10,441 nt of DNA from a virus (lineage: Duplodnaviria; Heunggongvirae; Uroviricota; Caudoviricetes): the IMG/VR virus record IMGVR_UViG_2681813269_000009; one strand, given 5' to 3'. Position numbers and translations under genes: made by a program. Shown here one piece after another: positions 9,654-10,283 of the stretch. The notes beneath the pieces were generated by a model that saw only the letters and a program-made list of their open reading frames with translations, made no database searches and was not told where the DNA came from. Position 1 is the first letter of the stretch; each line of letters begins with the position of its first letter.

Positions 9654-9687
9654 TTTATATTGATTTTGTCAGATGTGAGTAAACTCC

Positions 9688-10023
9688 TTATGGACTTTGT
9701 TGTTTTAGTCCATAAGGACATATTTGCAGAGTGCAACGGTTATTAAAGCATTCATTCAATACGTTATCTGTATTTGTAGGGCATTCCTGGCTATTTTTGA
9801 TTGAATTCCAGAATGTTTTATTGAATGGTACTACGTTGTAAATGGTTACAGGTAGCACTTTGTTATTGAGCATGATGCCTGTGTGAGTCAGTGTAAATAT
9901 ACTTTCAGGAGGTAAGAAAGCATCCGATTGATACCAGATTATTAATTTTATTTTACTCCATATGACTGAAAAAGATATTCCGCATGATGGCTGGATAACT
10001 GTATCAATCACAATCCACTTCAT
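9688..10023 (-). CDS. Hypothetical protein (111 aa) in AT-rich island
   Basis: ATG at 10023 (minus strand) with SD AAGGAA about 6 nt upstream. Long ORF in about 33% GC DNA. A 12-bp perfect hairpin (9685-9718) overlaps the stop. Only non-IS gene on the minus strand. No family recognised. Confidence 0.5.
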
Positions 10024-10283
10024 TTAGTTTCCTTGTTTATGCCTTGCTGGTGATGTTCTGAAAAGTATAAATGATATTTTTGAATGTAAACCATAGAGCA
10101 GAATTATTTTTCTGATGTTGTTTATTGTTTATTTAAATGCAGGGTGGTTTATATCTCGTCTTGTAGTTTATCCATGCATATCTGCTTGATAATCAGGTTT
10201 TTATTTAAGGTATGGTTTTGTGTTTTTTCTGTATTACATGTCAGGTATTTTAAAGAATTATTTTTCAGATGGTGGAAAGAACC

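Follow-up and report, generated by a model that had tools for sequence, protein, structure and literature searches.

The window analysed here, a stretch of 10,441 nucleotides from a Caudoviricetes virus record (IMG/VR IMGVR_UViG_2681813269_000009), carries near its end an AT-rich island whose one conspicuous open reading frame runs against the surrounding phage genes. The locus raises the question of whether this frame is a cargo gene of a kind not yet described. A sequence-only reading had proposed as much, calling the ORF the product of no known family, and its description of the DNA itself was borne out in every feature. GC content is 32.2% across the island (9654-10283), 34.5% in the ORF and 29.4% in the intergenic DNA at 10024-10285, against 50.1% in bases 1-6600, where the phage genes lie. 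The 111-codon frame (9688-10023 on the minus strand, stop codon included) is intact and begins with ATG. When the 630-bp island was shuffled 5000 times by mononucleotides, only 40 shuffles (0.8%) contained a frame, in any of the six, that stayed open for 111 codons or more, in agreement with the earlier view that such a frame is unlikely by chance. Leaving aside the IS600 transposase frames, no other minus-strand gene in the window is credible, as had been said. The claims that failed are those of an unknown family and an undescribed function. We conclude, with a probability of roughly 0.93, that the ORF is iraL, a prophage-borne paralog of K-12 IraM and an anti-adaptor of RssB that stabilizes RpoS.

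Identity of the minus-strand gene

The assignment to a family comes from profile, structure and ortholog comparisons. The NCBIfam model NF007393 (PRK09919, anti-adapter protein IraM) matches the ORF over its full length, scoring 162 bits where 121 is the cut-off and pairing residues 1-110 with model positions 1-113 of 114. K-12 IraM (b1160) is identical to the ORF protein at 65 of 107 positions (61%) without a gap, and a phmmer search of the PDB aligns residues 1-78, again gaplessly, with chain A of 8TWD, which is IraM (E 6.3e-31, 50/78 identical). Much closer is WP_000871291.1 of strain CFT073, annotated as IraM and located in the potB prophage, where the 2014 study of this gene places iraL (PMC4045071); a later paper gives the CFT073 locus tag as c1429. 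The two proteins agree at 110 of 111 residues, the sole difference being S74 in the window and L74 in CFT073. Only two bases differ across the 336-bp coding region, and DNA identity is about 99% over coding region, promoter and 5' UTR. The exact window protein, recorded under the name IraM [Shigella sonnei / Shigella], is found on at least 999 contigs and is the common Shigella allele. Taken with the number of IS600 copies, this suggests that the DNA comes from Shigella, although the DUF1737/IS600 junction had no exact match among the genome contigs scanned. Gapless identity of 61-64% to a crystallized paralog, combined with 99% identity to a characterized ortholog, settles the identity of the gene.

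Separating iraL from iraM takes a narrower comparison. We took as marks of the iraL subtype a coding region that is, over its entire length, at least 95% identical to that of CFT073 iraL, the promoter and 5' UTR that are at least 96% identical among iraL carriers and contain the mapped start, and a place in the late-region cargo slot of a lambdoid prophage, of the potB island type. The window gene shows all three, whereas its amino-acid identity to IraM is 61%. The 2014 study reports no overlap between matches to iraL and to iraM (PMC4045071). Judged from the sequence, the ORF has every checkable feature that defines the IraM/IraL family or the iraL subtype, and nothing in the sequence speaks against the assignment.

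That the earlier reading recognized no motif can be explained by the state of the databases, since scanning the ORF against Pfam found no matching model and its PHROGs family, phrog_4407, is filed under "unknown function". The only Pfam hit was Nairovirus NSm, at 13.9 bits against a threshold of 27.4, and was set aside as a chance match. RefSeq in turn uses the name IraM instead of IraL. Given this annotation gap, sequence-only scans will keep flagging iraL as an orphan. The function, partner, promoter and distribution of iraL were already published in 2014 and the structure of its paralog in 2023, so that the locus holds little new biology and its practical value lies in annotation. The gene is a textbook moron, one that rewires a core host regulator by acting on log-phase RpoS in uropathogenic E. 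coli and Shigella.

The gene is widespread. Of 5426 complete E. coli genomes, 1429 carry the 681-bp iraL region at a coverage of 80% or more, as do four phage records. Among the matches listed, all annotate an intact "anti-adapter protein IraM" adjoining a DUF1737 or SASA-esterase gene. In JJ1886 two places match the iraL region, and two iraL copies are reported for that strain in the 2014 study (PMC4045071).

Transcription signals and prophage setting

The 5'-RACE sequence given for the CFT073 iraL mRNA in that study, ACATCACCAGCAAGGCATAAACAAGGAAACCA (PMC4045071), occurs exactly in CFT073 and with a single mismatch, lying in the UTR, in the window. This match places the start of iraL transcription at window position 10056, 33 nt before the ATG, and defines a 5' UTR at 10024-10056 on the minus strand; the "+33" cloning boundary reported for iraL agrees with this distance (PMC4045071). 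A TATACT hexamer lies 7 nt upstream of the mapped start and forms, with TTTACA, a sigma-70-type promoter at 10064-10090 on the minus strand (-35 at 10085-10090, a 15-nt spacer, -10 at 10064-10069). The sequence-only reading had singled out this very pair of elements, which are identical in CFT073 and E. coli 042, and iraL transcription is attributed to sigma-70 in the 2014 report (PMC4045071). The spacer is short, and a generic sigma-70 scan missed the promoter because it accepts spacers of 16-18 nt only. Two other minus-strand promoter candidates, at 10131-10103 and 9972-9945, belong to a class found at a rate no better than in shuffles, and the start-anchored promoter is preferred. The strong Shine-Dalgarno sequence described earlier is likewise in place, as AAGGAA (complement of 10029-10034, minus strand) 5 nt before the ATG. 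Further upstream, at 10091-10283, lies the intergenic stretch that separates iraL from the divergent DUF1737 gene; it is AT-rich (about 29% GC) and 99% identical to the upstream regulatory region of CFT073 iraL.

The 3' end of the gene is covered by the hairpin that had been noticed over the stop. Its 12-bp stem is perfect, with arms at 9686-9697 and 9708-9719 on the minus strand enclosing a 10-nt loop (9686-9719, RNAfold -17.5 kcal/mol). The stop codon (9688-9690) sits within the first arm, the stem spans the last codons, and the structure is invariant in CFT073 and 042. No U-tract follows the hairpin, and a terminator role for it would be conjectural. A terminator scan near the iraL stop returned only a plus-strand site at 9632-9653, which belongs to an STnc100-family sRNA. 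This STnc100 terminator, with its T-run, converges on iraL, and 25 nt lie between its end and the stop codon of iraL.

The window as a whole corresponds to the late-regulatory region of a lambdoid prophage. Its genes run in the order hok/sok, DUF968, RusA, Q antiterminator, DNA methyltransferase and tRNA array, followed by a phrog_2873 ORF, DUF3927, STnc100 sRNA, iraL on the minus strand and DUF1737. The order Q, tRNAs, DUF3927, iraL (minus), DUF1737 and holin is common to CFT073, 042 and strain 131, with which the window is collinear apart from an IS600-associated insertion. The hok/sok-type type I toxin-antitoxin module occupies 1789-2114 on the plus strand (Rfam sok, 112.4 bits at 1789-1964), contains a Hok-family toxin ORF inside 1902-2114 and is annotated in relatives as hokD. 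The tRNA array at 6621-7179 comprises a tRNA with a CAT anticodon (tRNA-Ile in relatives' annotation), Arg-TCG and Arg-TCT; part of the array is duplicated (6677-6833 versus 6983-7142), and a 149-nt run of N at 6834-6982 interrupts the duplication. Further N runs in the window lie at 7915-7957 and 9501-9511. The DUF1737 gene begins at 10284 on the plus strand and opens the late/lysis block (Pfam PF08410, E 1.6e-15); only its first 42 codons are present (10284-10410).

Repeats and IS elements do flank the gene, as the earlier reading had said. The 126-nt direct repeat (8044-8169 and 9512-9637) falls within both matches to the STnc100 family, and the repeats are thus copies of this sRNA. One copy is full length (8005-8194, plus strand; Rfam RF02076, 123.6 bits, model positions 1-206). 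The other, beside iraL, retains the 3' two-thirds (9512-9662, plus strand; 71.2 bits over 9474-9662 against a gathering threshold of 47), its 5' third being replaced by IS600 and masked bases. RefSeq records of relatives show, on the strand opposite STnc100, a "hypothetical protein" marked as pseudo. The neighboring IS600 copy (about 8373-9511, minus strand) is 99.9% identical to annotated IS600 and matches an IS3-family transposase at 334 bits. It is truncated at its orfA end, an intact IS600 transposase frame running 72 nt beyond the end of this copy, and the N run at 9501-9511 covers its junction with the STnc100 copy. Only the end of a second IS600 is included, at 10411-10441 on the minus strand and in the same orientation as the first, as seen in a 36-nt repeat (8368-8403 and 10406-10441); it cuts the DUF1737 gene after codon 42, and relatives are collinear with the window up to 10413.

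Relative to the strain 131 prophage, 7915-9511 is a 1.6-kb insertion made up of 43 masked bases, a second STnc100 region at 96% identity, 188 bp and the truncated IS600. The 188 bp, at 8187-8374, belong in other strains to a different filling of the same slot. The arrangement looks like IS600-associated recombination between two lambdoid prophages. In the prophage of E. coli ATCC 11775 (segment 2463-3217) the iraL slot holds about 750 bp without an annotated gene, the first 188 bp of which correspond to window 8187-8374.

The slot itself lies downstream of Q, the tRNA genes and STnc100 and upstream of DUF1737 and the lysis genes, with iraL antisense to late transcription. In Stx phages the equivalent slot is filled by the stx genes. 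We conclude that iraL is a horizontally acquired, self-promoted moron and that the lambdoid prophage whose cargo slot it occupies is degraded. The suggestion of a horizontally acquired single-gene module therefore stands, while the defence, anti-defence or toxin role proposed for it does not, the gene being a regulator of RpoS proteolysis with no PADLOC match.

A better candidate for uncharacterized cargo in this window is the phrog_2873 ORF at 7317-7643 on the plus strand (108 aa, or 117 aa from a TTG at 7290; full-length match, E 3.8e-70). PHROGs lists this family as of "unknown function", and the ORF has no Pfam, NCBIfam or PADLOC match. One phage record, mEp460_ev081, annotates it as hypothetical, and in strain 131 no CDS is annotated at the syntenic position, where the DNA is 98.7% identical.

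Predicted action on RssB and competing explanations

Experiments on near-identical genes provide a likely mechanism. In the 2014 study, deletion of iraL lowers log-phase sigma-S in CFT073 and S. sonnei, sigma-S without iraL has a half-life of about 2.5 min instead of about 5 min, a native-promoter iraL clone raises sigma-S in K-12, and two-hybrid and copurification experiments show IraL binding to RssB through the N-terminal (receiver) domain of the latter; the protein is described there as acting in unstressed log phase (PMC4045071). Later work reports that iraL expression increases when CFT073 carries a fur mutation and when the temperature is shifted to 37 °C. By analogy with these orthologs, the window copy is predicted to bind RssB and to stabilize RpoS. 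As published for the near-identical gene, its own constitutive sigma-70-type promoter would drive iraL in exponential growth, and the protein would bind the response-regulator-like adaptor RssB, which, once bound, would no longer deliver sigma-S (RpoS) to ClpXP. The half-life and level of log-phase RpoS would then rise and the general stress response would be pre-armed.

How IraL might engage its partner is suggested by the IraM-RssB structure, in which a PmrD-like beta-barrel sits on the alpha4-beta5-alpha5 face of the RssB receiver, where sigma-S binds (PMC10844676). With 64% gapless identity to the crystallized domain, window IraL probably folds as the same kind of barrel, and its residues 1-78 would dock on that face. 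We mapped the published IraM contact residues (clusters I-III and P66; PMC10844676) onto the window protein. Cluster I, which faces the RssB N-terminal domain, is identical at all five positions (I4, I6, W22, K26 and I42), as is P66. Cluster II retains three of five residues, with T13S and L75I as the changes, and cluster III two of four, with H63N and I64V. All four substitutions are turned towards the RssB C-terminal domain and linker, which, by our inference, fits the published binding of IraL to the N-terminal domain only. The protein is indeed Cys-containing, as noted before, with five cysteines (positions 14, 81, 92, 97 and 102), all conserved with IraM. Its Cys-rich tail corresponds to the C-terminal region of IraM, which is proteolytically unstable, less conserved and was removed for crystallization (PMC10844676).

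The one residue that sets this allele apart adjoins the interface. Codon 74 (9802-9804) encodes Ser in the Shigella allele and Leu in both CFT073 IraL and K-12 IraM, and residue 74 is next to the RssB-contacting position 75, which in IraM touches the signaling helix of the RssB C-terminal domain (PMC10844676). The most novel possibility, though an unlikely one, is a two-part reading in which the arrangement of iraL may itself be regulatory and L74S may tune how IraL engages RssB. The setting for such regulation is a gene antisense to Q-dependent late transcription and tail-to-tail with STnc100, where prophage induction or read-through from STnc100 might switch off IraL and hence RpoS stabilization. 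If this were true, the switching of iraL would couple the host stress response to the lysis-lysogeny state of the phage.

A rival suspicion is that iraL is a decaying remnant that is no longer expressed or functional in an IS-ridden defective prophage, for example through L74S or altered neighbors. The flanking IS600 is truncated, another cuts DUF1737 and the adjacent STnc100 lacks its 5' part, and the change from Leu to Ser relative to CFT073 is non-conservative. Given this degradation, local regulation of iraL could well differ from that in CFT073. Decay of the gene is nonetheless very improbable in our judgment: nothing is broken in the ORF, Shine-Dalgarno sequence, -35, -10 or 5' UTR, which share 99% identity with the CFT073 locus, where the gene works, the exact allele is spread over those 999 or more Shigella contigs, and deletion of iraL in S. 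sonnei had a phenotype in the 2014 study (PMC4045071).

Location in a moron slot, opposite orientation, low GC content and a separate promoter are all typical of modules for defence, anti-defence or toxicity, which would act on phages or kill the host. We give such a role hardly any credence here, since no defence-protein family in PADLOC-DB matches the ORF at E up to 0.01 and since a cellular partner, RssB, and a phenotype are both established for the family. When cloned with its native promoter, iraL raised sigma-S in K-12, and the passages drawn on mention no toxicity (PMC4045071). A connector role, in which IraL would act like PmrD on another response regulator such as PmrA and not mainly on RssB, draws on the resemblance of the IraM fold to PmrD alone in the PDB, on the fact that both proteins raise the net phosphorylation of their partner (PMC10844676), and on the divergence of IraL from IraM at the contacts with the RssB C-terminal domain and linker (T13S, L75I, H63N, I64V). 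It too has only the slimmest chance of being right, because every residue that faces the RssB N-terminal domain has been kept and because IraL copurifies and interacts in two-hybrid assays with that domain and alters sigma-S stability (PMC4045071).

Comparison with known systems

Among the known systems compared is the connector protein PmrD (PDB 4HN7), which protects phospho-PmrA and, like IraM, is a small receiver-binding protein; it has the only other fold in the PDB that resembles the IraM beta-barrel, with an r.m.s.d. of about 1 A (PMC10844676). Its partner and output differ from those of IraL, and searching the PDB with the window protein gave no sequence match to PmrD at E up to 1. Salmonella RssC, an anti-adaptor resembling IraM and IraL, belongs to the same iraL-iraM-rssC family. 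It is about 49% identical to iraL in the published ClustalW alignment and, as described there, restricted to Salmonella (PMC4045071).

K-12 IraM (YcgW/ElbA, b1160), the anti-adaptor induced by Mg2+ starvation and seen with RssB in PDB 8TWD, shares with IraL both the target, RssB, and the outcome, sigma-S stabilization (PMC10844676 and PMC4045071). The two differ in how they are controlled, housed and bound. By visual comparison, the upstream region of K-12 iraM has no evident similarity to that of iraL, and iraM adjoins e14 whereas iraL occupies its slot in a lambdoid prophage. IraM binds both RssB domains and IraL only the N-terminal domain, according to the 2014 study (PMC4045071). Window IraL is also longer than IraM by four C-terminal residues (QQSP).

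The closest system is the IraL of CFT073 and S. sonnei (formerly YcgW, c1429), characterized by Hryckowian et al. in 2014 (PMC4045071), with which the window protein shares 110 of 111 amino acids. The CFT073 gene has identical -35 and -10 elements, a 33-nt 5' UTR in which a single base differs, and an unchanged hairpin at the stop codon. It also sits in the same lambdoid-prophage slot, bounded by Q, the tRNAs and STnc100 at one end and by DUF1737 and the holin at the other. Unlike CFT073, the window has S74, one altered UTR base and a difference at position -1, and its neighborhood has been rearranged by IS600, with the 1.6-kb insertion 3' of iraL and the DUF1737 gene cut.
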